This document shows, one piece after another, positions 7,885 through 32,949 of a DNA stretch of 64,000 bases. Numbering within the stretch: the first letter of the stretch is position 1; each line of letters begins with the position of its first letter. The stretch comes from an uncultured archaeon. Lineage in GTDB: Archaea; Thermoproteota; Bathyarchaeia; Bathyarchaeales; Bathycorpusculaceae. The notes below the pieces were generated by a model. That model ran no database searches, was not told the origin of the DNA, and saw only the letters and a list, made by a program, of their open reading frames with translations. The stretch lies in contig CAWALK010000022.1 of assembly GCA_963782915.1 (NCBI GenBank), forward strand, positions 192,001 through 256,000, in the 5' to 3' direction. The translations under genes were made by a program, and so were the position numbers.

Positions 7885-8000
7885 AACTGGGGCTGAGAAG
7901 GCGACTGGTTACGATTTACGATGTTTGCAATCATCGTGGATCTAATTTGCAGTTGTGTTCTACTCTCCTTAATGGTCCAGTCGCCTCAGCAAACCCAGTT
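7885..8000 (+). ncRNA. BHB-flanked intron-like sRNA, copy 1 (predicted excised RNA 7898-7992, 95 nt)
   Basis: AACUGGG|GCUG|AGA|AGGCGACUGG pairs with CCAGUCGCCU|CAGC|AAA|CCCAGUU; 11-bp internal hairpin 7913-7942; CUCUCCUU anti-SD. Confidence 0.85.
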
Positions 8001-8065
8001 AACAGTGCCAAATTTTAGTTATGCCAAGCGACGATTTATTTAATTAGCTTTAGATTTGAAGCCGT

Positions 8066-9022
8066 TTAGAAGGTTGAGAGGAATTCTCTACGGAGTGGCC
8101 ATACAGGAAATAATCTGGAAACAGATATCTCCCAATTAGTTAGGTTATTTATTGCCAGAATCTGCTCCTTGAAACCCACAAATTGGTCAATATCTCTAAT
8201 CATCAAGCTCGCTATGCAATCAAATTTGCCGCTAGTTTTATGAATAAAGTTAATGTCAGGAGATTGAGAAATGGCTTCTACACTCCTGCTGAGGTTATCT
8301 TGAGAGAATGATAATTTGAAGAGAGCAAAAGCCCTGTACCCAATTTTTGAGGGGTTGATTTGAATTACTGGTTTTATGTCTTTATTGCGCTTGAGTTTTC
8401 CGTATCTTCTAATAACGGTATCTGTTGAGATGCCGAGTTCTTTACTGATATTGCAAAATGGGGTTCGCCCATTTGTTACCAATTTTTCAATTATGAATTT
8501 GTCAATATCATCAATTTCGATACGATTGATTTCTTTGTCTGTGCTTTGATCATTTTCTCCAGCAACTGCGTTAGCTAGTACAGATAGATTATCTGGGTTA
8601 TTACACATTCCAAGCCAAACTTGAGCTTCTACCTCTAGGACATAGGGTAATTGCTTGATGGATTGTTTAGTTTGCTCTATCTCCTGCATTGTTTTTACGG
8701 TGAATACCGCGCTAAGGTTTGGATTAACTCCTTCAGGATAAACTTCAATCACGTTGGCTGCATCGTTGAGAAGCTTGATAACATAATCTGCCTTGTGTAG
8801 TTGAGTGTAAATGTTGAAGGTTGCGACAAAATTGCTGTTGTAACAGGCGCAACTGTTTTGGATGGTTGCTCCAACGATTATGCCTTGTTTTTTCATTTGT
8901 TTGTATCTGTTAGCGATGACTTCTTTGGATACATTGCTTTGTTGGGCGATGGCTGTGAAGCTTTTCCGTCCATCCTTTAGCAGTTCTTTTAGGATTGTTG
9001 CGTTAATGCGGTCGATCTTCAA
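8066..9022 (-). CDS. Lrp/AsnC family regulator with two tandem HTH-RAM units
   Basis: IDRINATILKELLKDGRKSF and IDDIDKFIIEKLVTNGRTPF..ISKELGIS. Confidence 0.9.
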   Translation of the reverse strand: MKIDRINATILKELLKDGRKSFTAIAQQSNVSKEVIANRYKQMKKQGIIVGATIQNSCACYNSNFVATFNIYTQLHKADYVIKLLNDAANVIEVYPEGVNPNLSAVFTVKTMQEIEQTKQSIKQLPYVLEVEAQVWLGMCNNPDNLSVLANAVAGENDQSTDKEINRIEIDDIDKFIIEKLVTNGRTPFCNISKELGISTDTVIRRYGKLKRNKDIKPVIQINPSKIGYRAFALFKLSFSQDNLSRSVEAISQSPDINFIHKTSGKFDCIASLMIRDIDQFVGFKEQILAINNLTNWEISVSRLFPVWPLRREFLSTF

Positions 9023-9148
9023 TTATGGTTGCTTCCGATTGTTTGCTTTCTGTTAATGATTGGTTTGAATATCATAAATTGCTTTCGGAAATAATGAAAA
9101 TTCGCAACTGAATTCTTTAACTCTTTCCATTTTTATAGGTATGTTAGT

Positions 9149-9164
9149 CGAAAAAACTATATAA
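9149..9164 (+). promoter_or_regulatory. candidate BRE-TATA promoter upstream of BHB sRNA copy 2
   Basis: CGAAAAAA-CTATATAA about 45 nt before the element. Confidence 0.5.
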
Positions 9165-9209
9165 CAAATTAGTAGAAAAATATGGCAAAACGATAGATTA
9201 AGATAAAAC

Positions 9210-9312
9210 GGGCTGAATAGGCGCTGGTAAGTATCACGATATTGCCTGCCCGGTGTTTCGTGGAGAGCTTTTGCATTTAGCTCTTACTCCTTATCCAGAG
9301 CCTCAGCAAACC
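9210..9312 (+). ncRNA. BHB-flanked intron-like sRNA, copy 2, stand-alone (predicted excised RNA 9218-9309, 92 nt)
   Basis: GG|GCUG|AAU|AGGCGCUGG with CCAGAGCCU|CAGC|AAA|CC; CACGA/UCGUG hairpin; UUUUGCAU..CUUACUCCUUA segment. Confidence 0.75.
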
Positions 9313-9485
9313 ACAAAAACGTAGTTACTATTAACCGGCCGCTGATACCACATTATCAATCCTTAGCGGATGCACATGCCTCTGAGGATAGCTTGGTTTT
9401 GCTTAGGTTTTACGAATTACCCGCACAGAGATGCTTAGACAGCAATTAAAATATACCAAGTAAACATTGACTTGCTGGGTAAGCT

Positions 9486-9678
9486 ATGAAGCGAAAGAGC
9501 CTGCGAAAATTCAGCATAAAAAATAACCTAACTGCATTTTTAGGTTTGTCCCTTGTTTCGCTTGTTGTATTCGGGTTCATAGCACTCAACGGGCAAGATT
9601 CAAGAGGCGGTGGCTGCGTTTTCTGGTAGTCAACCCCAACTCGACGGTATCACCTTTATGATTATGAAAATGACTTAG
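9486..9678 (+). pseudogene. internally deleted membrane-bound SpoIIE/RsbU-type PP2C phosphatase remnant
   Basis: N-terminal TM (MKRKSLRKFSIKNNLTAFLGLSLVSLVVFGFIAL) joined out of frame to KIQEAVAAFSGSQPQLDGITFMIMKMT*, resembling the SpoIIE C-terminal PQ.DDIT motif; directly upstream of RsbW/RsbV. Confidence 0.65.
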
Positions 9679-9687
9679 AAGGCTTGA

Positions 9688-10125
9688 ATGATGAAAGACA
9701 GCGATGGATGGTTTGAACTTAAAATAGAAAGTGACCTAAAGAACCTAGAAATTGTAGCGGATTTCATAACTAAAACCATGCGTGAATCAGGCGCACAAAA
9801 TGAAAAAGACATATTCGATGTCCAATTAGCCGTAGACGAAGCCTTAACAAACATAATCGAACACGCTTACGCCGGCATTAAAGGCGGCAAAATCACAGTA
9901 CAATGCCGACTATCAGAATCAAAAAAAGAGTTCATAGTTAAACTTAAAGACTCAGGCAAACCCTTTGATCCCCAAACTGTCGCTTCTCCAGACACCGACG
10001 CCGAATTAGAGGAACGCAAAGTCGGCGGATTGGGAATTTACTTCATGAAACAGCTTATGCAAACCGTTAAATACGCCATCAACGACAAGGAAAACGAATT
10101 AACGATGGCTAAGATTCTTAGCTGA
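9688..10125 (+). CDS. RsbW/SpoIIAB-like Ser/Thr kinase (HATPase_c_2)
   Basis: LAVDEALTNIIEHAY, DSGKPFDP, GGLGIYFMKQLM. Confidence 0.92.
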   Translation: MMKDSDGWFELKIESDLKNLEIVADFITKTMRESGAQNEKDIFDVQLAVDEALTNIIEHAYAGIKGGKITVQCRLSESKKEFIVKLKDSGKPFDPQTVASPDTDAELEERKVGGLGIYFMKQLMQTVKYAINDKENELTMAKILS

Positions 10126-10135
10126 GGGTTTAACG

Positions 10136-10471
10136 ATGAGTGTTGAAGTTAAAACTGTGGGCGACGTAAAAATTATTTGTATCATGAAACGATTTGATGC
10201 TTATACTGCAAACCAGGTTGAGGCAGAATTAACAAGACTTATTGCGGAAGGTTCTCGCAAGATAGTGTGCGATTTCTCACAAACAGAGTACCTTGCCAGT
10301 GCTGGACTTCGCGTGCTCATAACTGCCACCAGAAGCCTCCAGAAAGTAGGCGGCAAAATTGTGCTCTGCTCAGTCAAGCCCTATGTGCTCGAAGTCTTCG
10401 AAATATCTGGCTTAAAGAAGATCTTCAAAATATTCGATTCCACCGACGCCGCCCTACAAGAACTAAAATAA
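10136..10471 (+). CDS. STAS domain anti-anti-sigma factor (RsbV/SpoIIAA-like)
   Basis: DFSQTEYLASAGLRVL, V.EVFEISGL. Confidence 0.92.
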   Translation: MSVEVKTVGDVKIICIMKRFDAYTANQVEAELTRLIAEGSRKIVCDFSQTEYLASAGLRVLITATRSLQKVGGKIVLCSVKPYVLEVFEISGLKKIFKIFDSTDAALQELK

Positions 10472-10483
10472 ACGGTGCTTAAG

Positions 10484-12208
10484 ATGAAATTAACCAGTTC
10501 CGATCTTCTCTTAAAATATCTTGAGAACGAAGGCGTCGAATACATATTCGGTGTCCCCGGACTCAGCTTAATCCCCCTTTTCGAGGCATGCAATCGAAAC
10601 CCAAAGATCAAGCCGATCCTCGCCAAACACGAGGAAGGAGCCGCATTCATGGCAGACGGCTATGCCCGAGTCAAGGGAACCTTAGGCGTATGCTTTGCTA
10701 CCTCAGGTCCAGGCGCAACTAACCTCATAACTGGAGTTGCAACCTCCTATCTCGATAACATCCCAGTTATGGTATTAACTGGTCAAGTTGCAACTTCGTT
10801 ATCAGGCGGCGGCGCTTTTCAGGATTCCACCAAAAACGGTGTCGACTCGGTAGCCATGTTTGACCCAATTACAAAGTACAGCACTATGATTCTTTCTAAG
10901 TATAGAGCTCCTGAAGAGATCCGTGAAGCCCTCAGAATGGCATTAACGGGCAAAAAAGGCCCCGTACATTTGAGTATGCCCAAAGACGTGATGGCTGAAG
11001 AGATAGAATCCGAACTACCAACATCTACCTCGTATAGGCCGCCTGCTGAGTACTTTGATCGCCGCATGGTGATTGAAGCCGCAGAGCAACTCGTAAACGC
11101 ACAAAACCCTGTAATCTTGGTGGGCAGCGGCGCAGTGGCATCTGGGGCTTGTGAAGAAATCCGTGATTTAGCTGAAACTCTGCGCATCCCAGTTGCGACT
11201 TCACCCAAAGCAAAAGGAGCCTTCCCAGAAGATCATCCACTATCCTTGGGTGTGCTTGGTTTCTGCGGTTCTCCTGTTGCGGAAAACTGTCTAACTTCCG
11301 GTCAAACCGATGTGCTATTAGTTATTGGGTCTAGCCTAAACCAGATGACAACTATGTCATGGGACCCACGCTTAGCGCCAACCAAATGTTTAATCCATAT
11401 AAACATTGACGCGACCGAAATCGGCAGAAACTACAAAGTCGATATTCCATTGGTTGGCGATGCCCGAACAATTATTAACGAAATCTCTTTCCGCATCATG
11501 AAATACATTGTGGATGAGCAAAGCCCAAAATGTGACGGAGCGGCAAGGGTTGCAGCTATACGACAGAAGGTCGGGATATGCGTATCACCCGAAAAGATGG
11601 AATCCAATAATATTCCAGTTTTGCCTCAACGCATGGTCAAGGAATTAGAACGTGCCTTGCCAGAAGACGCCATTCTATTCGTTGACACAGGAAATCCCAT
11701 GTGCTGGGCTATTCACCATATGCAAGTCCGAAGACCAGACTCGTTCATCTGTCCCTTCGGTCTTTTAACCATGGGTTACTCTACTGCCGCAGCTATAGGC
11801 GGAAAATTAGCTGCACCAAACCGTCCAGTTGTATCTCTAGTTGGGGATGGTTGCTTCTTGATGAATGGCATGGAAGTAGCTACAGCCGTCAGCTATGATA
11901 TACCAGTCGTCTGGATAGTGCAGAATAACGCAAAACTTGGTTTGGTCCATGAGTTCCAGAGGTTGAACTTTGGCGAAAAAACAGTTGTTACCAGATTCAA
12001 GCCGATTGACGCTGCCAAAGTGGCTGAAGGATTAGGTGCCAAAGGGTACCATATCGAGCGGCCAGGTGAACTTGAAGCATTATTGCCTAAAGTTATTGAA
12101 GAGAATAAGCCGGCTGTTATCGACTGCAGAATTGCTGATGAGGTACCGCCGCTTGCTCCATTTGTTCAGGGCCTCAAGAACTTCTCCAGCCGCCTAGAAA
12201 ATATGTAA
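10484..12208 (+). CDS. thiamine-pyrophosphate enzyme, acetolactate synthase large subunit-like
   Basis: IFGVPG, HEEGAAFMADGYAR, TSGPGATN, GDGCFLMNG..N motif. Confidence 0.92.
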   Translation: MKLTSSDLLLKYLENEGVEYIFGVPGLSLIPLFEACNRNPKIKPILAKHEEGAAFMADGYARVKGTLGVCFATSGPGATNLITGVATSYLDNIPVMVLTGQVATSLSGGGAFQDSTKNGVDSVAMFDPITKYSTMILSKYRAPEEIREALRMALTGKKGPVHLSMPKDVMAEEIESELPTSTSYRPPAEYFDRRMVIEAAEQLVNAQNPVILVGSGAVASGACEEIRDLAETLRIPVATSPKAKGAFPEDHPLSLGVLGFCGSPVAENCLTSGQTDVLLVIGSSLNQMTTMSWDPRLAPTKCLIHINIDATEIGRNYKVDIPLVGDARTIINEISFRIMKYIVDEQSPKCDGAARVAAIRQKVGICVSPEKMESNNIPVLPQRMVKELERALPEDAILFVDTGNPMCWAIHHMQVRRPDSFICPFGLLTMGYSTAAAIGGKLAAPNRPVVSLVGDGCFLMNGMEVATAVSYDIPVVWIVQNNAKLGLVHEFQRLNFGEKTVVTRFKPIDAAKVAEGLGAKGYHIERPGELEALLPKVIEENKPAVIDCRIADEVPPLAPFVQGLKNFSSRLENM

Positions 12209-12491
12209 GCCCTTCCGACTTCCTTGGGCTATTTTTTTTATTTCTCTATTTGATTGAAGGGATCAGAGAAACTTCTGGAGAGAATTGATGATCTCAAAAT
12301 AGTATCGTCACATTGAAATTAGAATAGTTGGCGAAGTTCTTAGGTATTGTTCTAATCATTTAGTTTTGTAAAGTAACCGCCAGTTTTTGGTAATGGATGT
12401 TTTGTAGTGCTGTGGCTGTTGGTAACAAACGCATTGTTTTAAATATCAACCGCTGAAAAGTAAGGAAGCACAAACAAGGAGATAAGAAAAA

Positions 12492-15103
12492 TTGAATAAA
12501 AAAATCTTTGCAATTTTGCTTTTTTTGGCTTTTAGCATTAGGAACATTTGCAGCTATACCAAATGAAGTAAACGTACAAGCAGCAACAGCAGCAACACAA
12601 AAGACCTATTCAATTACTGATGCAATCCCCGACAAAATCGGCCTTGGCGAAACAACACTTCTCAAAACCGGTATTACACAAGCACTAAACGCAGCCGAAG
12701 ATGGTTGGAGCGGCCTCACAATCACAGTCACAAAACCAGACGGCACAAACACAACATTGGGACCATTCAAGTCAGACTCGACAGGTTCAACCTTCACCCA
12801 ATACACACCAGACGCAGTAGGCACCTACACTATAACAAGCAACTTCCCACAACAAGAAATGCCAGTAAACACAGACGACGCAGAAAGAGGCATAACTATT
12901 CCTAAGGGAACCATCATGCTTGCAAGCAGTGCATCATGCACATTAGTCGTAACAAATGAGCCTTCACCAGTATATCCTGGTCATTCCCTTCCAACTGAAT
13001 ACTGGAGTCGCCCAATCGACCCACAGCTTAGAGAATGGTTCAGCATCTCAGGTAACTGGGTTCAACGACCAGACAATTCATTAGCACTCTTCAATGACGA
13101 TGCACCAGACACAGCACACGTACTATGGGCTCAAGATTTAACAACCGGCGGTATGTCAGGCGGTCTCATCAGGCCCTGGTCAAGTTCACTGCAGGAATGA
13201 ACTCAGGCGACGCATACGAAGGCAAATTCTCCAACTCAGTCATACTCAACGGAAAACTCTATCTACAACACTGGACCCGCACCAGGCTTTTACGGTTCAC
13301 TTGGCATCAATGTAACGTCAAAGCAGTTGACCTACACACAGGCGAGGAACTCTGGGTTAAAAAACGACACACTTCCTATCCTTTGGTCAAGAATTCTACT
13401 GGAACAGCTACAACGTAGATGGTGTATACAGTTATCTTTGACAACATCACCACTTATGATCCACCATTCTTCATCCCAAAAACCACTTGGACTGCATACG
13501 ACCCCTTTGAATGGCTTCTATGGTGCTTCACTTTCGAGAATGTTCCCTCAGGAACAGCAAATCTATGGCCCAAGCGGCGAAATCCTGATCTATCAAATTG
13601 ACTACGTAAACAACCGACTGATGCTTTGGAACTCAACCCTCTGCGGATCTACAAAATGCAGCGCCAGATTCACCTGATCTACGGTAGTTGGGCAAGCAAC
13701 GTCATGATGAAAACATTCGATGCATCAAATCCAAAATGCTACTCTTGGAACGTCTCTATCCCAGCGGGCTTGAAACAGAAGCACATACATTCGGGGCATC
13801 AATCGCGAAGATCTACGATGACAGAATATGTCTGCATTATTCTTCAACCAAACAATGGTAAGAGTATGGGCAATAAACACTGAAGACTTAACAAAAACAT
13901 CCACATCAACTCTCAACTGCTATTCGATCAAACCTGGGCTGCACCAACCGAATGGCTTGCATGGCTCAAACACTCTACATTACACAGGCGCAACAAATTA
14001 TGTATCACAGACAGTACATACGGCGACGGTGTCATAGCAGTATGGGACAAAGAATTAAGAACCCACTATGGCTTTAGCATCACAACTGGTAAATACCTCT
14101 GGGCAACTGGCTCTGAAATCTATTCCGATGCTTACGGTTGGGGTAATGCAGAACACACTTGGTACTTTGCTTATGGCAAATTGTACTCAGTGGGTGTCGG
14201 CGGTATCCTCTATGCTTATGACCTTGCAAACAGGATGACACAGCATGGACATACAATCTAACTGACGCCCAACTGGAGAACCCGTCACAGGCAACAACTG
14301 GTGGGGCTGGATTGACCTAATTGCTGATGGCAAAATCTACATCGGCACACTTGAACACTCAGCTGAGAACCCACTACCAAGAGGCGCACCCTACATCGCA
14401 GTTAACGCAACCGACGGCAGCTGAAATCTTGCCGTGTCAACGGTATGTTCCGTGAAACCAGATGGGGCGGTAACGGCATCATCGCTGATAGCATCATCGC
14501 AACCATGGACACATACGACCAACGCGTATATGCAATCGGCAAAGGCCCAACACAACTAACAATTGACGTACCAGGTATCGGCGTAGCATCAGGACAAAGC
14601 ATCATGATACAAGGCACAGTTAACCGACACATCACCAGGCACCTCAGACTTACGCATTAACCTCAAGATTCCCCAACGGTGTCCCTGCAGTATCTGACGA
14701 CAGCCAAAGCCAATGGATGCTCTATGTATACAAACAATTTGAACGCCCAACAAACACTACTGGCGTTGAAGTAATCTTAACTGCTTTGGACCCTAATGGT
14801 AACTATATCACCCTCGGCTCGACTACAACGGATGCAAGCGGCACCTTCGGATACAACTGGGCAACACCTGACATTCCAGGCAAGTACACGATCACTGCCA
14901 TATTCGCTGGCTCCTCGGCATACTATTCTTCAAATGCACAAACATACGCTATCATAGAGTCTGCACCTGAACCCACCGCTGAACCAACAAAAACACCAAC
15001 GGCAATCTCAGAAACCTACTTTGTACCTGCAATTGGGGGTATATTCATTGCAATAGTAGTAGGTTTCGTGTTGATGCTATTAGTACTCAGGAAACGACCA
15101 TAA
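12492..15103 (+). CDS. PQQ-like beta-propeller surface protein (paralog 2), many frameshifts (probable sequencing errors)
   Basis: TTG after AAGGAG; LPTEYWSRPI; YDQRVYAIGKGP; RFPNGVPAVSD; C-terminal YFVPAIGG TM + RKRP. Confidence 0.85.
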
Positions 15104-15163
15104 GGTGAAAACGAAATGAAAAACACCCTTTCCCTTCCTTTTTTTAGTTTCAATTTATGTTTC

Positions 15164-15281
15164 AGGCTGGGGCTGAGTGGGCTTCTGGACTACTGTTTTA
15201 CGCGGTGTTTGCGATCATCGTGTTTGCATTTTTCTTCTCTCCTTAAGAATAAATGTCTAGGCGCCTCAGTAAACCCAGTTT
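15164..15281 (+). ncRNA. BHB-flanked intron-like sRNA, copy 3 (predicted excised RNA 15178-15272, 95 nt)
   Basis: AGGCUGGG|GCUG|AGU|GGGCUUCUGGAC with GUCUAGGCGCCU|CAGU|AAA|CCCAGUUU; multiple G-U pairs. Confidence 0.85.
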
Positions 15282-15317
15282 AAACCTTTTTTCGTTTTCT
15301 TTTTCTTGAAATAATTA

Positions 15318-15392
15318 GGCGCCGGGGTTAAGGACTCGAACCCCTGTGGGCATGAAGCCTCTGGCTATCTTGCCATTTCTGGCTCTTGCCCT
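15318..15392 (-). pseudogene. degenerate 3' fragment of tRNA-Ser(CGA) including part of the intron (att-site remnant)
   Basis: Matches 19121-19195; 25 nt exact (15368-15392 = 19171-19195); T-arm mutated. Confidence 0.85.
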
Positions 15393-15672
15393 TACGATAG
15401 GTTTTTTTTAATGTGGGTTTTTTGCATGCGCTACTTTGGTACTTTATGGCTTAATTTTAGCAACGAGAATTGTAAAAGGCAAAACTGATTTAGCAAAGAA
15501 TGGTTTGTGCCTTATCTTTCGTTTATGAATAAAAATAAGAAAAAATGCTATATTCGTAATCGTTATTCATAATTATACTTAATTTTATGGCAAGTTTTAA
15601 GCATATTTGCAAAACCATAAATACGCAAAGGAAACAAAAAAAGAAGCCATAGACATAGGAGATAAGAAAAAA

Positions 15673-18393
15673 TTGCATGTATTAAAAAAAATTGCAACAA
15701 TAATGTCTGTATTGTTAATTGCTTGTATTGTAACTTCTATATTCGCAGCACCATTGGCAACTGGCCAGGTAACCTTGCCGCCTGGCACACATATTGCGAC
15801 TTATGCAAACATTAACGTGGCACCCAACCCAATCGGCGTTGGACAAACAGTCAACGTAAACTTCTACCTTGCGTCACCATTAATCGACAGTAGCAGGCCA
15901 ACAAACATGACAGTTAAAGTCACTGACCCAAGTGGCAACGTCCAAATGAAAGGTCCATACACCGGCGATACAACTGGCGGAACCTTCTTCAACTTCGTTC
16001 CAGACAAAGTCGGCAACTGGACATTCCAACTGTTCTACGGCGGACAACTCACAGTAGGCAGCTCGGGATTCGGAGGAGGACCACCAACTAACGCCAAACT
16101 CATACAAGACCCCAGCGAAAGTAAAGTCTACACGCTTTTAGTACAAGAAGAACCCATAGTACAAACCGGCTACCCACTGACTCCGCTACCAACAAGCTAC
16201 TGGGAGACACCAGTGTCGGCTCAGAACGTCCAGAACTGGTACAAGATTATGGGCCCCTGGCTAGGACTTGGAACCATCACCTTTGCCTCAACGGGCGCAT
16301 ACAACGTCAGCAGCCTATGTAACCCCTACACGCCATCAGTAACATCCGGACACATCATCTGGACGAAAACATGGGGCGCAGGCGGTGTCGTAGGCGGCAG
16401 CGCAGGCGGAACCGAAGATTCAGGCAGCTACTGGTCAACAAGGCAGTACTGGCCACAGTATGCACCAGTCATCATGAACGGCAAAATGTACTCGACATAC
16501 TACCCAGAAACCACAGGCTACTCAAACGGCATAGTATGCACAGACCTCTACACTGGCGAAACGCTTTGGAAAATCAACACAACCGCTGTCCTTCGATGCG
16601 GAATGACGACACAGTGGAAGACTCCAAACATGTACGGCGTAGTCGGCCCATATATTTGGACTACAGGTAACTTACCCGCTTCAGAAACCGGCGGAAAACT
16701 TATCCAAAGCTCAGGCACTGAAATGGGCATGTTTGGTCCAGCGCAAAAAACAGCATACAACCTGTATTCTGCTGAAACAGGACAATACGTCCTAAGCATC
16801 GTTAACGCTTCGGCCATGACACTTAAAGAAGATTCTCAGGGAGATATAATTGGCTACTATCTTAACAGTACTGTTGGAACAATGAGAATATACGGTAATG
16901 CCCCACAAATGGGCACACAACCTCTGGTTCAAACAGTAAACATCACTGCAGGCAAACCAGTCTTATGCTGCTTCAACTTCACACAGGCACTCGGCAACTC
17001 TTGGGGATGGTCTCCATCACAGAACACCGCAATTGACTTCGGTCTAGGTGTAATGTGGGCGAAGCCAGTACCAACCGAAATCAACGGAAAACCAATCTTC
17101 CCAGCACTCGCTATGGATGCAATCAACCCACTAGGCGGCGACGCAGTAGTACTAACAGGCGGATACACCATCATGCAAGGAGGCGGAGACGAAACATGCG
17201 GTTGGCTAGTAGTAGCTTCCATGGATGACACAACCGGCGATGTCTTGATGTGCAAGAACTTCACATACGCAGACGGCTACCAATCATTACTGCCTTACAC
17301 GAGGACAACCAGCTGCAACGTCGATGGAAACAGAGTGATAGCCAACGTGGTTAACAACAAAATCGACGCCTTCAACATACGCACCGGAGCTAAAGCATGG
17401 TCATCAACCCTCGACACTCCATCAGGCTCTACAAACACCTACGACTCGTTCGGCTTCAAAGCTGCACCAGTAAACGGCAAACTGCTCCTCTTCGGTTTAG
17501 GCGGAGACATCTGGGCATACAACGGTAAAACAGGCGCAGAAGAGTGGTACACCAACACAACCGGCTTAATCGGCGACTCAGGCATCGAAACACCATACGG
17601 TACATGGCCACTATGGGTATTTAGTTCACAAGCCTATACACCAGAAGTCGCATACCTCGCAATCGGTCACGAATACAACCCGCCACTATTCCACGGAGGA
17701 CAACTATTAGCAGTCAACATGACTGACGGCACACTAGTCTGGAGTGAACTAGGCGCCTACATCCGATCAGTAGCAATCGCAAACGGCGTCCTACTATCCC
17801 TAAACGCTTATGACAACCAGATTTACGCATTCAGCAAAGGGCCAACCAAGATAACCATTGACGCACCGAGCATTGGAGTAACAACTGCCACGCCGATACG
17901 CATCACAGGAACCATAACCGACGTTTCAGCAGGCGTTACACAATCAGAAGTAGCTAAGAACTTCCCCAACGGCGTACCCTGCGTATCTGATGCAAGCCAA
18001 AGTAAATTCATGGAACACGTCTACCAAGACCAGCCAGCACCAACCGACACCACAGGCGTTCCAATCACCTTGAGCGTCGTTGACCAAAACGGCAACTACC
18101 GCACAATCGGCGCTACTATGAGTACTCCAACCGGTTCATTTGGTATCACTTGGACACCGGATATTCAAGGGGACTATCAAATCTACGCAAGCTTTGAAGG
18201 CTCCAATTCGTACTGGCCAACATCAGCCGGAACATCCTTCTACGCAGGCGAAGCCCCAACAGCAGCCCCAACCCAAGTAGCAGCACAGACAGTTGACAAC
18301 ACTATGCTCATCGTTGCTATCGGCACTGCAATCATCATTGCTATCGCGATTGTAGGAGCAGTTCTACTGCTCGCTATAAGAAAACGCCCATAA
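15673..18393 (+). CDS. PQQ-like beta-propeller surface protein (paralog 3)
   Basis: TTG after AGGAG; PLPTSYWETPV; DLYTGETLW; YDNQIYAFSKGP; NFPNGVPCVSD; TM + RKRP. Confidence 0.88.
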   Translation: MHVLKKIATIMSVLLIACIVTSIFAAPLATGQVTLPPGTHIATYANINVAPNPIGVGQTVNVNFYLASPLIDSSRPTNMTVKVTDPSGNVQMKGPYTGDTTGGTFFNFVPDKVGNWTFQLFYGGQLTVGSSGFGGGPPTNAKLIQDPSESKVYTLLVQEEPIVQTGYPLTPLPTSYWETPVSAQNVQNWYKIMGPWLGLGTITFASTGAYNVSSLCNPYTPSVTSGHIIWTKTWGAGGVVGGSAGGTEDSGSYWSTRQYWPQYAPVIMNGKMYSTYYPETTGYSNGIVCTDLYTGETLWKINTTAVLRCGMTTQWKTPNMYGVVGPYIWTTGNLPASETGGKLIQSSGTEMGMFGPAQKTAYNLYSAETGQYVLSIVNASAMTLKEDSQGDIIGYYLNSTVGTMRIYGNAPQMGTQPLVQTVNITAGKPVLCCFNFTQALGNSWGWSPSQNTAIDFGLGVMWAKPVPTEINGKPIFPALAMDAINPLGGDAVVLTGGYTIMQGGGDETCGWLVVASMDDTTGDVLMCKNFTYADGYQSLLPYTRTTSCNVDGNRVIANVVNNKIDAFNIRTGAKAWSSTLDTPSGSTNTYDSFGFKAAPVNGKLLLFGLGGDIWAYNGKTGAEEWYTNTTGLIGDSGIETPYGTWPLWVFSSQAYTPEVAYLAIGHEYNPPLFHGGQLLAVNMTDGTLVWSELGAYIRSVAIANGVLLSLNAYDNQIYAFSKGPTKITIDAPSIGVTTATPIRITGTITDVSAGVTQSEVAKNFPNGVPCVSDASQSKFMEHVYQDQPAPTDTTGVPITLSVVDQNGNYRTIGATMSTPTGSFGITWTPDIQGDYQIYASFEGSNSYWPTSAGTSFYAGEAPTAAPTQVAAQTVDNTMLIVAIGTAIIIAIAIVGAVLLLAIRKRP

Positions 18394-18565
18394 GGTAAAG
18401 AGACAAATTCTCTTCCTTCTCTTTTTCCTTTATTTTTTTCTTTTTTAGTGAATTAATTTTTCTGATTTTTAAGTTTCGTTAATCATCAATATTCATTTTT
18501 TTAAAGATGGATTGGGATTCCACAAATTAATTATAATTGGCAATAGTTAGCTATAGTGACCTATA

Positions 18566-19109: not shown

Positions 19110-19119
19110 AAACGAAAGT

Positions 19120-19244
19120 TGGCGCCGGGGAAGGGACTCGAACCCCTGCGAGCACGAAGCCCACCAGCTGTCTTGCCATTTCTGGCTCTTGCCCTCGTTT
19201 GTTTGATCTCGAGGCTGGCGCGATAACCACTCCGCCACCCCGGC
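19120..19244 (-). tRNA. tRNA-Ser(CGA) with 38-nt intron at 37/38 (19170-19207), CCA encoded
   Basis: GCCGGGG/CCCCGGC acceptor, CCAGC/GCTGG anticodon stem, CT-CGA-G loop, long variable arm, GTTCGAGTCC. Confidence 0.93.
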
Positions 19245-20027: not shown

Positions 20028-20053
20028 ACAAAGTATTTTTTATTAATTTATTT

Positions 20054-23771: not shown

Positions 23772-23920
23772 TATTCCACCGCTGTGTAATATCCGTGAAG
23801 CTTAGTCTATATTAACGTTCGTTGCAAGTGGGATTGGTTTTTCAGGTTGCTGTAGAGAAGCTTTTGGATTATAATCAAGCCGGTGGGCTTTGGGGTCGCT
23901 TGCGACTTTTTTCTTTATCC

Positions 23921-24121
23921 CCCTTATTTATAGGCTCAACAATTGCAGGGTGGCGGCTTTGGGTGTTGCACGTTTGTTAGCACGCTTTTCTGGCGGCTCA
24001 GAGTTTGTGGAGTTTGGCGTTGGGTTTTTGTGCAGTTGTTTTCGGGTAGGTGTGTCTGGTTGATGCTTTCGTATACAGAAAACGTTTTGTTGCTCTGTGA
24101 GACCTCCCCTCCCCTTATATA
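23921..24121 (-). repeat. G-string intergenic repeat modules (reverse orientation)
   Basis: rc TTGTTGAGCCTATAAATAAGGG; rc TATATAAGGGGAGGGGAGGT..AGAGCAACAAAA; TTGATGCTTTCGTATACAGAAAACG shared with 1776-1800. Confidence 0.75.
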
Positions 24122-24256
24122 AAGAAGCAATTAGGTGCATTTGGCTGTTTTAGCGCTTGTTTTAGTGATGACTGCTTAGTTCGCTTTTTATACAAGCCAG
24201 CGGTAACAACTAAACTGTATAATCGGTGGGTAAAGAGTATCATCAAAAATCAGGGA

Positions 24257-26970: not shown

Positions 26971-28199
26971 ATCCTCTCCAGATTGCACGCCTATCCCTTG
27001 AAGCCCTAAAAGAGCGACGCGTCCGTACAGCACTCACTATCCTCATGGTTATCATGGGTGCAAGCCTACTAGTCGCCATAAACGGTACAGGCAACGGATT
27101 TACCAACTTCGTCGATGACCAGTTTAGCTCGTTGGGCGCAAACGTCCTTATTTTGACTCCTCGAAGCGAAAGCATTACCATCAACGATAACCTTGCCAGC
27201 CGAATTTCCACAATTGAAGGGGTTCAAGAAACCGTCCCCTACGTTCAGCAAATCACCACCTTGCGTTCGCAGGGCACTGACCAGACAACCATAGTGCAGG
27301 GTATCGAGCAGACAAAACTTCCTTTGCTGTTCCCAACTTTAGCCTTCGATTCTGGTTCATTCGTAACAGAAACAGACAATGTCGGCGTAGTTTTAGGCAA
27401 CGAATTATCACGTTTACCGGACAAAAGCGGAGTTTTCGCCAGCCAAGGCGGAACCGTCACAGTTGTCTACCAAGGATACGAAAACCAAAAACCTACCAAA
27501 ATCGAAAAATCTTTCGTCGTGCGAGGGCAACTAAGCTACATTGGCAGCGCCGTTATCCCAGCCGACCAAATGTCTTTTATTTCAACGCCTTCAGCACAAA
27601 AACTATTCAACCGCGCCGACAGCTATGATGGACTCTACGTTATCGCCCAAACCCCAGAAATGAATGAAGCCGTACTCGATAGAATCCGCGAACAATACGG
27701 CAACGACTTAGTTATTATTTCACCCCAAACAGTCTCTAAAACTATCGGACAAATTACCAGTGGGGTTTATCTTTTCATCAGTTTGGTAGCGCTTGTTTCC
27801 TTATTGGTCGCTTCAGTCGGAATCGTGACGACCCTTCAAACCTCCGTGATGGAACGTGTCAAAGAGATTGGTTTGCTTAAGGCTCTGGGCTATGACCAAC
27901 GGTTGATTCTAAGTTTATTCCTCTTCGAAGCACTAATCATAGGCATCATAGGCGGGGTGATAGGTGTATTTCTAGGCATTGGGCTCTCACATGGCATGAG
28001 CGCAATCCTTGGGCAGAACATCAAAATCCAACCAAACAGCGTTGGACCTGGTCTTCAGGTACAGATCATCCCAAGTTTCGATGCTTGGTACATAGTTTTC
28101 ACCTGGGGCTTATGCGTCTGCTTAAGCGTACTATCAGGCTTGTACCCATCTTGGAGAGCATCACGCTTAGACCCTGTAGTAGCACTGAAAACTGAGTAA
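26967..28199 (+). CDS. MacB/FtsX-type ABC permease
   Basis: RTALTILMVIMG, SVMERVKEIGLLKALG, YPSWRASRLDPVVAL. Confidence 0.93.
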   Translation: MNPLQIARLSLEALKERRVRTALTILMVIMGASLLVAINGTGNGFTNFVDDQFSSLGANVLILTPRSESITINDNLASRISTIEGVQETVPYVQQITTLRSQGTDQTTIVQGIEQTKLPLLFPTLAFDSGSFVTETDNVGVVLGNELSRLPDKSGVFASQGGTVTVVYQGYENQKPTKIEKSFVVRGQLSYIGSAVIPADQMSFISTPSAQKLFNRADSYDGLYVIAQTPEMNEAVLDRIREQYGNDLVIISPQTVSKTIGQITSGVYLFISLVALVSLLVASVGIVTTLQTSVMERVKEIGLLKALGYDQRLILSLFLFEALIIGIIGGVIGVFLGIGLSHGMSAILGQNIKIQPNSVGPGLQVQIIPSFDAWYIVFTWGLCVCLSVLSGLYPSWRASRLDPVVALKTE

Positions 28200-28370
28200 T
28201 CAGCAAATTTTCTCTTTTTCTTGACCCAAAACAGGGTTAACCGCCTGATTTTTAGGTGTAAACAAGCGCAGAAGTTGCAGATGTTTACTCATATGCCCAA
28301 AAATTAATGCATATCTATATATGGGTGTTATTCAAAATGCATTGAGTAGAACCAAAAATGTGGTGAATGT

Positions 28371-28763
28371 ATGAGCAGACCAGTAGATGTCGGAGAATTA
28401 CGCGTTGGCGGTTACATGATGATCGATGGCGAACCCTGCCGCATAATGGACATTTCAAAATCCAAACCAGGCAAACACGGTTCAGCCAAAGCCAGAATCG
28501 TAGCCATAGGCGTCTTTGACAATCAAAAAAGACAATTCGTCAAACCAGTTGACCTCGGCGCAGAAATTCCAATCATCGACAAAAGAGCCGGACAAGTCTT
28601 CTCAGTTAACCCGAACGGCGTGCAGATTATGGACCTAGAAACTTACGAGTACATAGACGCTCCATATCCTGAAGAAGAAGAACTTAAAGCCAAATTGCTC
28701 GCCGGCACTGAAATCGAGTACTGGAAGATTCTTGGTAAAGTAAAAATCGTAAGAGCAAAATAG
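28371..28763 (+). CDS. eif5a: translation factor aIF-5A
   Basis: SKPGKHGSAK hypusine motif. Confidence 0.97.
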   Translation: MSRPVDVGELRVGGYMMIDGEPCRIMDISKSKPGKHGSAKARIVAIGVFDNQKRQFVKPVDLGAEIPIIDKRAGQVFSVNPNGVQIMDLETYEYIDAPYPEEEELKAKLLAGTEIEYWKILGKVKIVRAK

Positions 28764-28986
28764 TTTAAGTTAACTTTTTTGTTTTTTCTTCAATTCTTTT
28801 TACTACTATTATTCATATACCCCTGATCTTTCTTTAAATCGGAAAATATTTGGAAAAGTACTCACGATAGGTGAGTGCATCTTATTAGCTGATTGAGATA
28901 GTTTCCCTACTGATTGATGTAGAAAACTTCGATCTTTGGACTGAGGCAGGGAAAGCGGCATTATTACAGACCAAATAATTGACACT

Positions 28987-29760
28987 ATGGCGGACCTAGG
29001 TCTTACTTTAGTGCAGGCTAGAATATACACGGTATTGGCAAAATCAGGAATTCTAACCGCTAGAGCTACAGCAAAAAATGCAAAAGTAGCCCCCCAAGAC
29101 ATCTATCGTATATTAAATGAACTATCGGAAAAAGGCTTAGTAGAAAGAATCATTGACAAACCAACCCGATATATGGCTATGCCCTTAGAAGAAGGCCTTA
29201 ACTTACTATTAAAACGCAGAAAAGAAAAAATCGTAGACTTGGAAAAAACAGTAGTACAATTATCGGAATTATCGAAAGCTTTCCCCGGCATATCTGAAGA
29301 AAAGATAGGGGGCTTTATCATCATTCCGGAAAAAGAGTCTATAGAAAAAATGGTTAACAAAATTTTTAACACCGCAAAAGTTAGCATCGACATGATCAAT
29401 GACATGCCCGAGGTTCTAATTGCCCACGACAAGCATCTAGAACCCAAACGTAGAGCCCTCAAAAACGGTGTTAAAATCCGAGATATACTGTGTCTTCAAA
29501 GAGGCGAATCGCCCTTGCCCAAAGGCTTTATAGATTTTTTGAAAGAAAACCAAAACATCTTTATTAAAAGCACAAAAATAACAGCACCTATAAAATTAAT
29601 AATCAAAGACAAATCAGAATTGTTCATGTCTACTATCATTAAGTCCGATACTTTGTCTCAGCCTTTCTTATGGTCGAACAATGAGGTATTACTGCATATG
29701 GCTCAACAATGGTATGACCGTATGTGGCTGGAAGCAAACGGTGATATAACAGCTTTGTAG
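28987..29760 (+). CDS. TrmB family transcriptional regulator
   Basis: LGLTLVQARIY, DIYRILNELSEKGLVE, WSNNEV..WYDRMW. Confidence 0.9.
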   Translation: MADLGLTLVQARIYTVLAKSGILTARATAKNAKVAPQDIYRILNELSEKGLVERIIDKPTRYMAMPLEEGLNLLLKRRKEKIVDLEKTVVQLSELSKAFPGISEEKIGGFIIIPEKESIEKMVNKIFNTAKVSIDMINDMPEVLIAHDKHLEPKRRALKNGVKIRDILCLQRGESPLPKGFIDFLKENQNIFIKSTKITAPIKLIIKDKSELFMSTIIKSDTLSQPFLWSNNEVLLHMAQQWYDRMWLEANGDITAL

Positions 29761-30006
29761 GTTGGATTCGGGTTGACTGCATTACTAATTAATGCGAGAT
29801 TTTATGATTTTTTCATAGATTGCGAATATTATTAATGTAAAAGAATTTACCTAATTTAGCCAAAAATTTGGTTTTTAGTGGTTTTTTAGGAACTAATATT
29901 GGATAACCGTTTGGCGTTTGGCTGGTAGTCGGAACCTACTACAGTGCTACCTTAAAAACAGATTGAACTAAAAAGAGTAGTTTATAAAATTAGGAAGAGA
30001 AAAAAA

Positions 30007-32778
30007 ATGGACTTTATCAATAAAAAAACAGTATCTATTCTATTCGCAGCTCTATTAGCAATTTCAATGATAACTACAATGGTACAAATTCAAAGCAGCA
30101 CTGCACATACACCTCCCTATCAGATTACAACTTACGCCAAAGTTACAATTCAACCCGATATTATCGGCGTAGGCCAAGCAGCATTAGGCTACGCTTTCCT
30201 TGGAAATGCACCCCTCCCCGGTTCAACAATGAACAATGCCTACAGATTCCACGACTACACCGTTACAATTACGGACCCTAATGGCGAAGTCAAAACACTT
30301 CACTGGGACACCGTTGATGACACAACCGGATGCCAGATGTTCAAATATACCCCTTCAGTAGTAGGCCAATACAACGTTACCTTCACCTTCGGCGGAATGA
30401 CACTAACATCAGCTGACACAGGCACAGCCGCGAGCATTGGCGACGTTTACCTGCCAAGCACCTCAACATGCACCTTCTACGCACAAGAAGAATCACTATC
30501 GAACTTCCCTGACAGTTATCCACTGCCAACTGAATACTGGACTAGACCAATCTATGGCGAAAACCCAGGTTGGTACACAATCTCATCCAACTGGCTAGGA
30601 ACTGGCTCACCTGTCATTTCAGCAACAGGCTCAGGCCTAATTACTGGCACAGGAACACAATCAGGAATTCAGAGATATCCCGGTGACGCCGTCGGTTCTA
30701 TGACTAGCCACGTCATGTGGACTAAACCAGTACAATCAGGCGGTGTTGTCGGTGGCGACACATACGAAATAAAAGGCGATACCTACTTTGAAGGCTCAGC
30801 ATACATCAATAGATTCCAGAACCCAATCATCGTAGCTGGGATGCTAGTTTACAAAGAACCCCTTTCCTTCTCAAGTGCAGGCGGCGGAGACACAGTCTGC
30901 GTCGATTTACGCACTAGTGAAGAGTTATGGCGAAGCCCAACAATGCCTGCAATCTCATTTGCCTACGTTCCTGATTTTCAGAACCCCAACCAACACGGTG
31001 TCTTCCCACCACTACTAGTCACATCCAACTGGGCACAAGTCTACGACGCTTACACAGGCTATCCAATGTTCAATGTTACTGGCTACAGCGCAGTCGGTGG
31101 TACCATAGTAATGGGCTCAAACGGTGAACATATAAAATACACATTCTTCAACAACGGCACCGCATCAAAACCAGACTGGTACTTATGCAAATGGAACGCA
31201 ACACTGATGTGGGGCGGAATCGGATACCACCCTAACGAAATTGGCAGCACACCCGCAATTCAAACCGAAACAACCACAACATATGCATTGGCTAACACAA
31301 CAACTTACGTCAACAACATAAAAACAATAACAAGCCAAAATGTCTCCACCTCAACAACTGCAGTTATCGCAAACCAGGGACGCCGCTACAACTGGTTAGA
31401 CTCTACAACACAGAACGAATCAATATCCTGGAAGAACCAAGCACAATACAACAACCTGCAATTTACAGTGGTAGCAGCCTACTACAACAACATCATGATT
31501 TGCAGAAACGGCTCATATCCAACTCTAACAGGTGTAACACAGAACGTGTCTGGTACCGTATCATTGACTAGTGCAAACTGGACATACTTCGCTATCGACC
31601 TTAACGAAAGCCACGGTACATTCGGCCAAATTCTTTGGACAAGCCCAACATTCACCTCTCTGCAAGACAAGACGATCACATTTGCTGGATCAGACCCAAC
31701 AGTCAACGTTTTCGTAGAAGGAAACAAAGAAACAACCACTTTCACAGGTTACAGTATGACAACAGGCCAAAAGCTCTGGACAAGTGTTGGCGAAACAACT
31801 TTAGACTACTTCGGTAATCCCGCATTCCCATACGCAAGTGCCCAAGAAGCATACGGCAAACTCTACAGCCTCAACTACGGTGGTGTACTATTCTGCTATG
31901 ACCTAACGAACGGTGACTTGCTTTGGACCTACGGAAACGGAGGCGCAGGTAACAGCACCTCAAGTGGTCTACAAACACACGGCTACTATCCAGGATTCAT
32001 AATGGCTGTAGGCAACGACGCAGTATACATAGGCGCAACACAGCACACCATCACTACACCAATTCCAAAAGGCAACTATATGCGAGCAGTTAACGCAACA
32101 ACAGGCGAAGAAATCTGGACAATCTCAGACTACACTGGCAACTTCTTCACCCTCTCCTTCGCTATGGCTGATGGTTACTGCACGTACTTCAATGGCTACG
32201 ACAACCTAATCTACTCAGTAGGCAAAGGACCAACATCATTAACCGTCACAGCACCAGACCTATCTGCAGCATCAGGCCAACCAGTGGTAATACGTGGAAC
32301 AGTCTATGATGTCTCAGCAGGTACAACACAAGATGAGCTAGTGGCACGCTTCGCAAACGGCGTTCCAGTCAGCTCTGACGCAAGCATGCCTGAATGGATG
32401 GGTTACCTCTACCAAGACAAACCACTACCGACTAACTTCACAGGTGTTGAAGTAGCACTCAACGTGCTCGACTCTAATGGCAACTACCGCACAATCGGCG
32501 CAACAACAACCGACGCTACAGGCGCATACAGCTACGTATGGCAACCAGACATTTCAGGTGAATACACAGTCGTTGCAACATTCGCAGGTACAGCTGGCTA
32601 CTGGCCATCAACAGCTACAACAGCATTCAACGTCATGAACGCAGAAACAACAGTAACACCAACCCAGACACCAGTATCTATGTCTGATGCCTACTTTGTA
32701 CCAGCAGTCATTGGCATTATCTTTGCAATCGTTATAGTCGGGGTCGCAATAGTATTCGTCCTAAAGAAACACCCATAA
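30007..32778 (+). CDS. PQQ-like beta-propeller surface protein (paralog 4)
   Basis: Signal peptide; YPLPTEYWTRPI; DLRTSEELW; YDNLIYSVGKGP; YFVPAVIG TM + KKHP. Confidence 0.88.
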   Translation: MDFINKKTVSILFAALLAISMITTMVQIQSSTAHTPPYQITTYAKVTIQPDIIGVGQAALGYAFLGNAPLPGSTMNNAYRFHDYTVTITDPNGEVKTLHWDTVDDTTGCQMFKYTPSVVGQYNVTFTFGGMTLTSADTGTAASIGDVYLPSTSTCTFYAQEESLSNFPDSYPLPTEYWTRPIYGENPGWYTISSNWLGTGSPVISATGSGLITGTGTQSGIQRYPGDAVGSMTSHVMWTKPVQSGGVVGGDTYEIKGDTYFEGSAYINRFQNPIIVAGMLVYKEPLSFSSAGGGDTVCVDLRTSEELWRSPTMPAISFAYVPDFQNPNQHGVFPPLLVTSNWAQVYDAYTGYPMFNVTGYSAVGGTIVMGSNGEHIKYTFFNNGTASKPDWYLCKWNATLMWGGIGYHPNEIGSTPAIQTETTTTYALANTTTYVNNIKTITSQNVSTSTTAVIANQGRRYNWLDSTTQNESISWKNQAQYNNLQFTVVAAYYNNIMICRNGSYPTLTGVTQNVSGTVSLTSANWTYFAIDLNESHGTFGQILWTSPTFTSLQDKTITFAGSDPTVNVFVEGNKETTTFTGYSMTTGQKLWTSVGETTLDYFGNPAFPYASAQEAYGKLYSLNYGGVLFCYDLTNGDLLWTYGNGGAGNSTSSGLQTHGYYPGFIMAVGNDAVYIGATQHTITTPIPKGNYMRAVNATTGEEIWTISDYTGNFFTLSFAMADGYCTYFNGYDNLIYSVGKGPTSLTVTAPDLSAASGQPVVIRGTVYDVSAGTTQDELVARFANGVPVSSDASMPEWMGYLYQDKPLPTNFTGVEVALNVLDSNGNYRTIGATTTDATGAYSYVWQPDISGEYTVVATFAGTAGYWPSTATTAFNVMNAETTVTPTQTPVSMSDAYFVPAVIGIIFAIVIVGVAIVFVLKKHP

Positions 32779-32836
32779 GGTGGAAGACTTGAAATCAAAT
32801 CTTTCCCTCCCTTTTTTAGTTTCAACGGTAAGTCAA

Positions 32837-32949
32837 CTGGGGCTGAGCAGGCTTCTGGACTGCTGTTTACGCGGTGTTTGCAATCATCGTGTTTTGCATT
32901 TTTCTTACCTCCTTAAGGAATAAATGTCTAGACGCCTCAGCAAACCCAG
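32837..32949 (+). ncRNA. BHB-flanked intron-like sRNA, copy 4 (predicted excised RNA 32848-32943, 96 nt)
   Basis: CUGGG|GCUG|AGC|AGGCUUCUGGAC with GUCUAGACGCCU|CAGC|AAA|CCCAG; ACCUCCUUA anti-SD. Confidence 0.85.

Follow-up and report, generated by a model that had tools for sequence, protein, structure and literature searches.

Apart from two isolated cases in mRNA, the natural substrates known for the archaeal splicing endonuclease, EndA, are the introns of tRNAs and the processing stems of rRNA. In intron-bearing archaeal tRNAs the intron lies between positions 37 and 38, and this placement fixes the arrangement of the bulge-helix-bulge (BHB) motif: stem, 4-bp helix and bulge follow one another on the 5' strand, and 4-bp helix, bulge and stem on the 3' strand. 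The available text of PMC7714728 names as substrates the introns of tRNAs, the stems of rRNA and two mRNA introns, that of cbf5 and one of 46 nt in the 5' untranslated region (UTR) of HVO_1309, whose excised piece was detected as a circle, and describes cbf5 of Crenarchaeota as the sole additional BHB intron reported until then. In the accessible parts of PMC12558985 and PMC12918454, circular RNAs from rRNA operons and insertion sequence (IS)-associated RNAs are reported, and Bathyarchaeia 16S rRNA is described as having no BHB. Here we analyse four BHB-bounded elements, c1-c4, in a stretch of 64,000 nt (the window) of contig CAWALK010000022.1 (C22) of the Bathyarchaeia assembly GCA_963782915.1, together with the family to which they belong. 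Most members adjoin genes of surface proteins, and their interiors complement translation starts of the same gene family. From sequence and structure we consider it an even call that EndA would excise, and RtcB probably circularise, an RNA of 75-112 nt that masks translation starts.

Compared with the BHBs of archaeal tRNA introns and of 16S/23S rRNA processing stems, the elements are identical in orientation and in the geometry of helix, 3-nt bulge and 4-bp helix. Their flanks, however, are neither tRNA nor rRNA and form nothing recognisable when joined; the conserved sequence is carried by the excised piece and not by the 'exons'; and the family is multi-copy, with a BHB core conserved in sequence. 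The introns of the cbf5 pre-mRNA and of Haloferax HVO_1309 resemble the elements in being BHBs outside stable RNAs with a protein-coding gene nearby; in the available text of PMC7714728 these are single genes with the intron in the coding sequence or the 5' UTR, whereas the elements number hundreds, lie downstream of the gene and past a T-run, and have a conserved interior. In animal tRNA intronic circular RNAs (tricRNAs) and in BHB-based circular-RNA expression systems, as the accessible portions of the sources describe them, a BHB likewise releases and circularises a possibly autonomous RNA; tricRNAs come from tRNA genes and the expression systems are engineered, whereas an element would be a natural dedicated locus. 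Functional circular non-coding RNAs of archaea, in sources that were partly available, include the circularly permuted signal recognition particle (SRP) RNA of Thermoproteus, made via a BHB, and circular C/D box small RNAs (sRNAs), whose circles come from a different ligase; the elements differ from both in having no SRP, C/D or H/ACA feature.

All four window elements lie on the + strand and share one layout: an outer helix, GCUG, a 3-nt bulge (AGA, AAU, AGU or AGC), an inner helix of 9-12 bp, an interior of 60-70 nt, and on the 3' side the second strand of the inner helix, CAG(C/U), AAA and the second strand of the outer helix. In c1 (7885..8000), AACUGGG at 7885-7891 pairs with CCCAGUU at 7994-8000, GCUG (7892-7895) with CAGC (7987-7990) and 7899-7908 with 7977-7986, the bulges being AGA (7896-7898) and AAA (7991-7993). 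The central helix of c2 (9210..9312) is formed by 9212-9215/9304-9307 and its inner helix by 9219-9227/9295-9303, with bulges at 9216-9218 and 9308-9310. For c3 (15164..15281) the same parts are 15172-15175/15267-15270 (CAGU), 15179-15190/15255-15266, 15176-15178 and 15271-15273, and for c4 (32835..32951) they are 32842-32845/32938-32941, 32849-32860/32926-32937, 32846-32848 and 32942-32944. A first-pass annotation of the window had described four + strand elements with exact BHB geometry; they are real, with the coordinates and anatomy it gave. Recomputed from these coordinates, the predicted excised RNAs again measure 95, 92, 95 and 96 nt (7898-7992, 9218-9309, 15178-15272 and 32848-32943), but this near-constant length is local and no family trait: 45 copies range from 75 to 112 nt (median 93). 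The minimum free energy (MFE) structure from RNAfold is helix-bulge-helix-bulge-helix for c1, c2 and c4, and nearly so for c3. Folding z-scores of c1-c4 are -5.25, -2.65, -3.62 and -3.58 on the + strand and -6.45, -1.21, -0.22 and -1.22 on the - strand, the + strand being better in three of the four.

The same architecture holds throughout the family. All 56 copies aligned from 31 genomes, as well as the four of the window, have two 3-nt bulges on opposite strands with a 4-bp helix between them; on each strand the bulge comes 3' of the central helix, which is the orientation of known substrates, and flanking helices stand on both sides, giving the helix-BHB-helix (hBHBh') motif. The 3' bulge is AAA in 54 of the 56 copies, and the central helix shows one compensatory change, to ACUG/CAGU. 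That this is the geometry of an EndA substrate, as first proposed, is supported by two BHBs of the same genome, at the flanks of its 23S rRNA and at the 37/38 intron of a tRNA-Ser. The latter gene, tRNA-Ser(CGA) at window positions 19123-19244 (-), was detected by Rfam, while ARAGORN in its bacterial setting reports zero tRNAs in the window; parsed by eye, it has a 38-nt intron at 37/38 within a relaxed BHB, whose bulges read AGA and ACA and whose 4-bp central helix contains one mismatch. Around the 23S rRNA (G000:C12:366985-370056) a BHB processing site in that orientation, cuaaa-CGCC-aaa-CAGACACUAC and GUAGUGUCUG-AGCG-aua-uuuag, stands 22 nt ahead of the Rfam match and 13 nt behind it; a C-A mismatch interrupts its central helix. 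A scan of the 23S flanks finds no site with four perfect central pairs and one site when one mismatch is allowed; matches of mirrored geometry also occur in the long 23S stem, and the scan alone is not decisive. Taken together, the tRNA-Ser intron and the 23S BHB assign the substrate geometry to the + strand of the elements and its mirror image to the - strand. The 23S BHB also fits the circular 23S rRNA that the accessible part of PMC12918454 reports in Bathyarchaeia. As to the enzymes, the genome has one RtcB gene and two EndA-family genes 21 kb apart (G000:C3:14491-14736 and C3:35259-35510, -; ORFs, that is open reading frames, of 189 and 184 aa); the presence of two suggests a heteromeric enzyme of the heterotetrameric, broad-specificity type.

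Covariation, which the first-pass annotation had seen among its four copies, extends to 13 copies of the genome: 85.3% of cells are paired, double changes occur in 11 of 21 pairs, the covariation score is reached by none of 500 shuffles, and pairing drops to 24-51% when the partner strand is slid by 1-3 columns. Twenty-nine copies, one per other genome, give 89.1% paired cells, double changes in 15 of 21 pairs, no shuffle of 500 at the observed score and 27-51% pairing on sliding, in an alignment fitted to the covariance model, which favours its structure. RNAalifold on its own predicts the same helices. Covariation is seen in the inner helix and in the distal part of the outer one; the inner helix (9-12 bp) has 87-93% of its cells paired, with double changes in 6 of 10 pairs within the genome and in 9 of 10 across the other genomes. 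The strand argument of the first-pass annotation, that substitutions tend to create G-U rather than A-C pairs on the + strand, is right in direction, but the excess is just about 2:1 (57 versus 30 cells in the 56 copies; 22 versus 10 in the 13 copies of the genome). The orientation of the elements relative to the upstream gene is constant. Copies within the genome have a median identity of 56%, and of 48% in the interior; with the core structure kept, such divergence marks an old family under constraint and not a recent repeat.

The pattern of c1-c4 is far beyond chance, and the four are not the whole family, as first thought, but belong to one with hundreds of members. Further copies came from nhmmer, from a motif scan and from a covariance model (R1) built on 13 copies of the genome. 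At E<=0.01 R1 gives 303 matches in 31 of 61 genomes, the organism's own and its relatives, with up to 24 copies per genome. In the genome itself, 20 R1 matches correspond to 17 distinct places, contig C5 repeating part of C22, and one further decayed copy was detected by nhmmer alone. Matches occur in 28 of 36 genomes of the same genus and in both genomes of genus g16, which belongs to a different family, and R1 has no match in the 22 genomes searched from 19 further genera of the order; these absences refer to the searched genomes, the larger runs having used stricter filters. In a class-wide draw of 151 genomes, 12 have matches, with multi-copy occurrence in just two families, f1 (6 of 15 genomes; four genera) and f7 (3 of 5; genus g16), and single weak matches in two others. 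Among the genomes searched, multi-copy elements are thus confined to two families of one Bathyarchaeia order.

They match none of the known RNA classes examined, in keeping with the first-pass annotation. At the Rfam gathering score across the whole window the elements match no family, including hammerhead and other ribozymes, H/ACA, SRP and tRNA, and at E<=10 there is no match over 7700-9500, which holds c1 and c2. Box C (RUGAUGA) is found in none of 69 copies, so that the elements are not C/D-box sRNAs, and the CUGA that is present belongs to the central helix and bulge. A hammerhead reading (CUGANGA...GAAA) was rejected, the second box being CAAA by eye and an Rfam match lacking; so were a kink-turn reading of the bulges, neither of which precedes GA by eye, and an H/ACA reading, for which a consistent ACA after the basal stem is missing.

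The elements are linked to one kind of gene. Upstream of 48 of the 56 copies, at a distance of 39-110 nt (median 58 nt), lies the end of a co-oriented ORF of at least 150 aa; its C-terminus has a hydrophobic stretch followed by (L)RKRP or a like basic tail, and most of these ORFs exceed the 1.5-kb flank. In the genome under study, nine of 18 copies lie 52-60 nt after ORFs of one paralogous family and a tenth after an apparent decayed tail. This surface-protein family combines a PQQ-like propeller with Ig-like domains, has pairwise identities of just 30-46%, and gives 39 BLAST matches in the genome, of which 22 have kept the N-terminus intact. Within the window, paralog 1 (5256..7829, +; PQQ_2; C-terminal membrane anchor ending ...MLKKHP; start region GGAGAAAAGAAAAAAAUUG at ~5258-5276) precedes c1. 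Paralog 2 (12476..15103, +) has decayed into ORF fragments at 12508-13200, 13327-13677 and 14717-15103, and both its start region AAGGAGAUAAGAAAAAU (12476-12492) and its 3' element, c3, are kept. Paralog 4 (30007..32778, +; PQQ_2 and an Ig-like domain) is followed by c4. For these three genes the distances from stop to element first given, 55, 60 and 56 nt, are correct, and the label 'beta-propeller' agrees with the Pfam matches to PQQ_2 and Ig-like domains. Paralog 3 (15607..18393, +; start region UAGGAGAUAAGAAAAAAUUG at ~15656-15675) has a T-run after its stop (~18413-18450) and no element, and so represents an 'empty' site; c2, conversely, is an orphan without an upstream surface gene.

Between stop and element the sequence is C-rich and then T5-8 in 54 of 56 copies. 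In the window, CUUUCCCACCCUUUUUU at 7851..7867 (+) separates the stop of paralog 1 from c1, and T-runs precede c3 (15128..15145, +) and c4 (32801..32817, +). The run at 7851..7867 is likely the terminator of paralog 1 and possibly the TATA region of c1; the same tract also follows paralogs that have no element, and most simply it would be the terminator of the gene. From the end of the T-run to the central helix there are 24-34 nt in 38 of 54 copies, the intervening sequence differing by lineage, and orphan copies, c2 among them, are preceded by AT-rich boxes rather than by a gene (TATA-like CTATATAA at ~9156-9163 in the AT-rich sequence before c2). Since T-runs stand at element-less paralogs, the spacing is constrained and orphans exist, a promoter of the element's own, overlapping the T-run, seems at least as likely as read-through. 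The description '3'-UTR-derived' of the first-pass annotation is doubtful on this account, given the intervening T-run, its spacing to the BHB and the orphans. In elements L045-L070 of genus g16 and L033-L069 of genome G007 the T-run forms a hairpin loop, CUCCC-U7-GGGAG or UUCCC-U7-GGGAA.

What the excised piece might do is suggested by its interior, which carries two conserved motifs, UUUGCAU and (U/C)-rich-CUCCUUAA. Their complement spells UUAAGGAG, 7-10 nt, AUG and CAAA, which is a ribosome-binding site (RBS) and start codon, and the start regions of the propeller family read UAGGAGAAAAGAAAAA-AUG/UUG-(C/A)AA. In the window this anti-start-region motif lies at 7946-7972 in c1, where it is degenerate, CAG replacing CAU, at 15223-15246 in c3 (UUUGCAU...CUCUCCUUAA) and at 32893-32916 in c4, while c2 has UUUUGCAU at 9269-9276 within a hairpin loop and ACUCCUUA at 9286-9293; in the MFE folds CUCUCCUU (c3) and CCUCCU (c4) likewise fall in hairpin loops. 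Genome-wide, the best complements of element interiors are start regions of the propeller family: 17/17 nt in the next propeller gene (C15), 24/26 in a 928-aa paralog (C11), 19/19 nt in a paralog on C20 and 17/17 nt in one on C12, and the start regions of window paralogs 1, 2 and 3 are complementary at 15/15, 16/17 and 17/18 nt. Duplex energies average -14.1 kcal/mol, and -8.8 +/- 0.4 once the interiors are shuffled. Compared with 700 gene starts taken at random, 22 family start regions give lower duplex energies for 7 of 12 elements, and against 500 sampled gene starts bearing GGAG the preference has p<0.001 for 5 and p<0.05 for 8 of 12 elements, p-values that are overstated, with a signal that is partly compositional, because the family start regions are homologous and purine-rich. 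Extended complementarity from the Shine-Dalgarno (SD) sequence to the start codon, kept in evolution, is thus found as for an antisense RNA, except in about one third of the copies.

In many copies UUUGCAU sits in a hairpin loop on arms that vary (AGAGCA/UGCUCU, AGAGAG/CUCUCU, GAUGG/CCAUU). An arm-matching test gives a mean stem of 4.35 bp, versus 3.86 for mismatched arms (0 of 2000 permutations), with kinship uncontrolled and some anchors misplaced, so that support for this hairpin is weak. RNAalifold applied to 34 excised parts recovers just the basal stem because indels spoil the alignment of the interior. In genus g1 a box that could pair with UUCUCC of the interior, GGAGAA(A/G)A, stands immediately 5' of the BHB. 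Anti-SD loops are familiar from bacterial sRNAs with C-rich loops and from 3'-UTR-derived sRNAs, with a site in or beside the 3' end of a related gene. Similarly, Methanosarcina sRNA162 and RBS-masking antisense sRNAs have pyrimidine-rich anti-SD hairpin loops like those of the elements, as far as the accessible sources describe them. The elements differ from such RNAs in that maturation would use the splicing endonuclease in place of an RNase E-type cleavage, in that complementarity spans from the SD to the first codon, and in their link to a paralogous family of surface proteins.

A comparison of lineages adds to this picture. In genus g16 the interior reads UUUUUUCAUUUUUUCAUUCCUUCAA, or in longer form UUUUUUCAUUUUUUCA(U/C)(U/C)CCUUCAA. 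Its 23-nt complement pattern, with up to three mismatches, occurs at seven places in a complete g16 genome, and the reversed control at none. Four of the seven are elements and one is a 16-codon ORF; the other two are starts of ORFs with a signal peptide (at least 503 aa), both of which have an element 2.6 kb downstream on their own strand. In this genome 13 of 17 elements lie 45-59 nt after ORFs of 803-858 aa. Where correctly picked, the starts of g16 surface genes read GAAGG(A/U/G)..AAAAA-AUG-AAAAAA, and in a reciprocal duplex test the energies are -14.1 and -18.2 kcal/mol within lineages and -9.5 and -12.6 across them. The antisense motif therefore tracks the start-region dialect of its own lineage, first codons included. 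The similarity between interiors and start regions is limited to about -15 to +10.

From these features we infer transcription, cleavage, circularisation, target pairing and a regulatory effect, in the following way. A precursor of ~115-150 nt would fold at both ends into the canonical hBHBh' motif, and heteromeric EndA would cleave within both 3-nt bulges. RtcB would then close the released piece of 75-112 nt into a circle, the short flanks being ligated or decayed. The released RNA is predicted to have a long basal stem and two or three small hairpins, which would expose a conserved pyrimidine-rich stretch of 20-25 nt consisting of UUUGCAU, the U/C tract and CUCCUUAA, the exact antisense of an SD sequence, an A-rich spacer, AUG and the first codon. 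Through it the RNA may pair with the start regions of transcripts that encode membrane-anchored PQQ-propeller surface proteins and lower their translation. The targets would belong to the very gene family that most copies adjoin, and the effect would be feedback or cross-control among paralogs.

Several observations weigh against this proposal. No RNA run covers window positions 6500-16000, for which four DNA runs were found, with shares of at most 0.10. Alignments A4 and A5 were fitted to the model and so lean to its structure; just 75-78% of cells are paired in the distal outer helix, and the outer helix of c2 is weak, at just ~2 bp. The central helix and the GGG/CCC next to it are almost invariant and are hence backed by complementarity and not by covariation. 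Their strict conservation, GGGCUGAG...CUCAGCAAACCC, hints at more than the known need of EndA, candidates for the extra constraint being a protein site, a promoter-proximal element or a junction loop. The T-run between gene and element makes read-through, and with it a true 3'-UTR origin, uncertain. On the side of the targets, 4-5 of the 12 elements of the genome, c1 and c2 among them, have no preference for family start regions, the anti-AUG of c1 is mutated, and the background start codons of the duplex comparison were picked by a crude rule.

The last of these points bear on the alternative that survives best, although we judge it unlikely: an EndA-processed RNA with a different job, such as serving as a general anti-SD competitor or sponge, binding a protein or acting as a guide, in place of specifically repressing propeller genes. 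The structural evidence for the BHB applies equally to it, the elements without a family preference and the orphans unlinked to the family are readily accommodated, and the complementary region is a generic SD, A-rich spacer and AUG. A general role does not, however, explain why the interior co-varies by lineage with the starts of surface genes, first codons included, why the best complements are repeatedly family starts, or why 48 of 56 copies are linked to the family.

Less probable than this is a structure that stays uncut in cis at the mRNA 3' end and acts in exonuclease protection, termination or protein binding; we include in the same estimate its variant with cis pairing between the structure and a 5' start region, either that of the same mRNA or that of the one that follows. 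The constant position ~58 nt after the stop and the co-orientation of the copies would suit such a role, as would the T5 run that 23 of 56 copies have in the 45 nt downstream and, for the variant, one element whose best match is the start region of the next same-strand gene (17/17 nt). Yet a stabilising hairpin needs no 3-nt bulges spaced by exactly 4 bp, which all 56 copies have; orphan copies have no upstream gene; the T-run resembling an archaeal terminator precedes the element and also follows paralogs without one; and an exact BHB in a cell that contains EndA is expected to be cleaved.

An intron-like selfish BHB element, spread via RNA or DNA with no function for the host, appears improbable. 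It would explain multiple copies, up to 24 per genome, and the patchy occurrence in 28 of 36 genomes of the genus as opposed to none of 22 from 19 other genera, and BHB introns have reportedly been transposed on a large scale in Thermoproteales. The copies are, however, old and diverged at a median identity of 56%, while retaining their structure and two interior motifs; orientation and spacing to one gene family are constant in spite of 30-46% protein identity; and no target-site duplications are seen by eye.

We think it very improbable that the functional strand is the minus strand, with the 'SD and AUG' a real ribosome-binding site of a small protein and the palindromic ends acting at the DNA level or as a hairpin. 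Most copies do show AAGGAG, 7-10 nt and ATG on that strand, yet the ORFs that follow have 4, 10, 14, 35, 36, 48 and 77 codons and no conserved frame, the ATG is missing in c1 and several other copies, indels in g16 change the reading frame but leave the nucleotide motif GUGAUAGUAGC in place, the bulges are mirrored and no substrate, and the fold is worse in three of the four window elements. A miniature inverted-repeat transposable element (MITE) or other DNA-level repeat is hardly credible: inverted-repeat ends and multiple copies recall one, but the arms contain compensatory changes, G-U pairs are in excess on one strand, the copies have low identity (median 56%) and a fixed orientation (48 of 56 co-oriented with the upstream gene), and no target-site duplications are seen by eye.

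Some further features of the neighbourhood were recorded. The orphan c2 is flanked by a gene for a double helix-turn-helix (HTH) regulator of Lrp/AsnC type (8066-9022, -) and by an operon that begins at 9688-10471 (+), whose first gene encodes a HATPase_c_2 protein with an anti-sigma-factor-like kinase fold; c2 has no link to the surface family. Contig C5 (32 kb) repeats C22:199000-207300 (window ~7000-15300) nearly exactly, with ~3.9 kb more between c2 and c3; where the window has the fragments of paralog 2, this extra DNA holds a propeller gene in two ORFs and a decayed element (C5:27717-27820). The repeat may reflect either copy-number variation of a gene-element array between strains or an assembly duplicate. 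A tandem array at G000:C24:136947-142933 (-) runs from a propeller gene and an element through ~300 nt with a 70-codon ORF to a c2-type element, and continues with ~200 nt, a propeller gene and a decayed element. Finally, 37 nt past c3, window positions ~15318-15395 (-) hold a copy of the 3' part of tRNA-Ser, from mid-intron (GGCAAGAGCCAGAAAUGGCAAGA) to the acceptor end. Its 5' half is absent, Rfam gives no match at E<=1 over 15270-15620, and the intact gene lies 3.8 kb away with propeller paralog 3 in between; it could be an attachment-site duplicate that an integrating element left behind, or else a tRNA gene in split or decayed form.

The first-pass annotation knew of no described family of this kind, and our literature searches, with subscription journals and bioRxiv supplements outside their scope, gave neither a family of BHB-bounded small RNAs nor small RNAs of Bathyarchaeia. 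The enzymes and the antisense logic are known; their combination and scale appear to be undescribed in the literature searched. If the proposed excision and antisense pairing are true, a conserved family of hundreds of stand-alone BHB-bounded RNAs would be a whole new class of splicing-endonuclease substrates and would include the first regulatory RNA matured by the tRNA-splicing machinery. A bolder form of the proposal, doubtful but worth stating, is that the elements are self-contained circular-RNA genes in which the T-run serves as both terminator and TATA region, and a transcript of ~120 nt yields a circle of ~95 nt that silences paralogs. The 'exons' would then be just the two BHB arms, EndA and RtcB would produce a stable circle exposing the complement of a ribosome-loading site, and each expressed member of a family of 25-40 would keep its paralogs from being translated. 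Archaea would thus have, by way of the tRNA-splicing machinery, a counterpart of the mutually exclusive expression of surface antigens. The element also offers a natural template for circular-RNA expression cassettes. To our knowledge, almost nothing is known about RNA regulation in Bathyarchaeia, and a complementarity that tracks the lineage yields a concrete target model, which is rare for these uncultured and globally abundant archaea.

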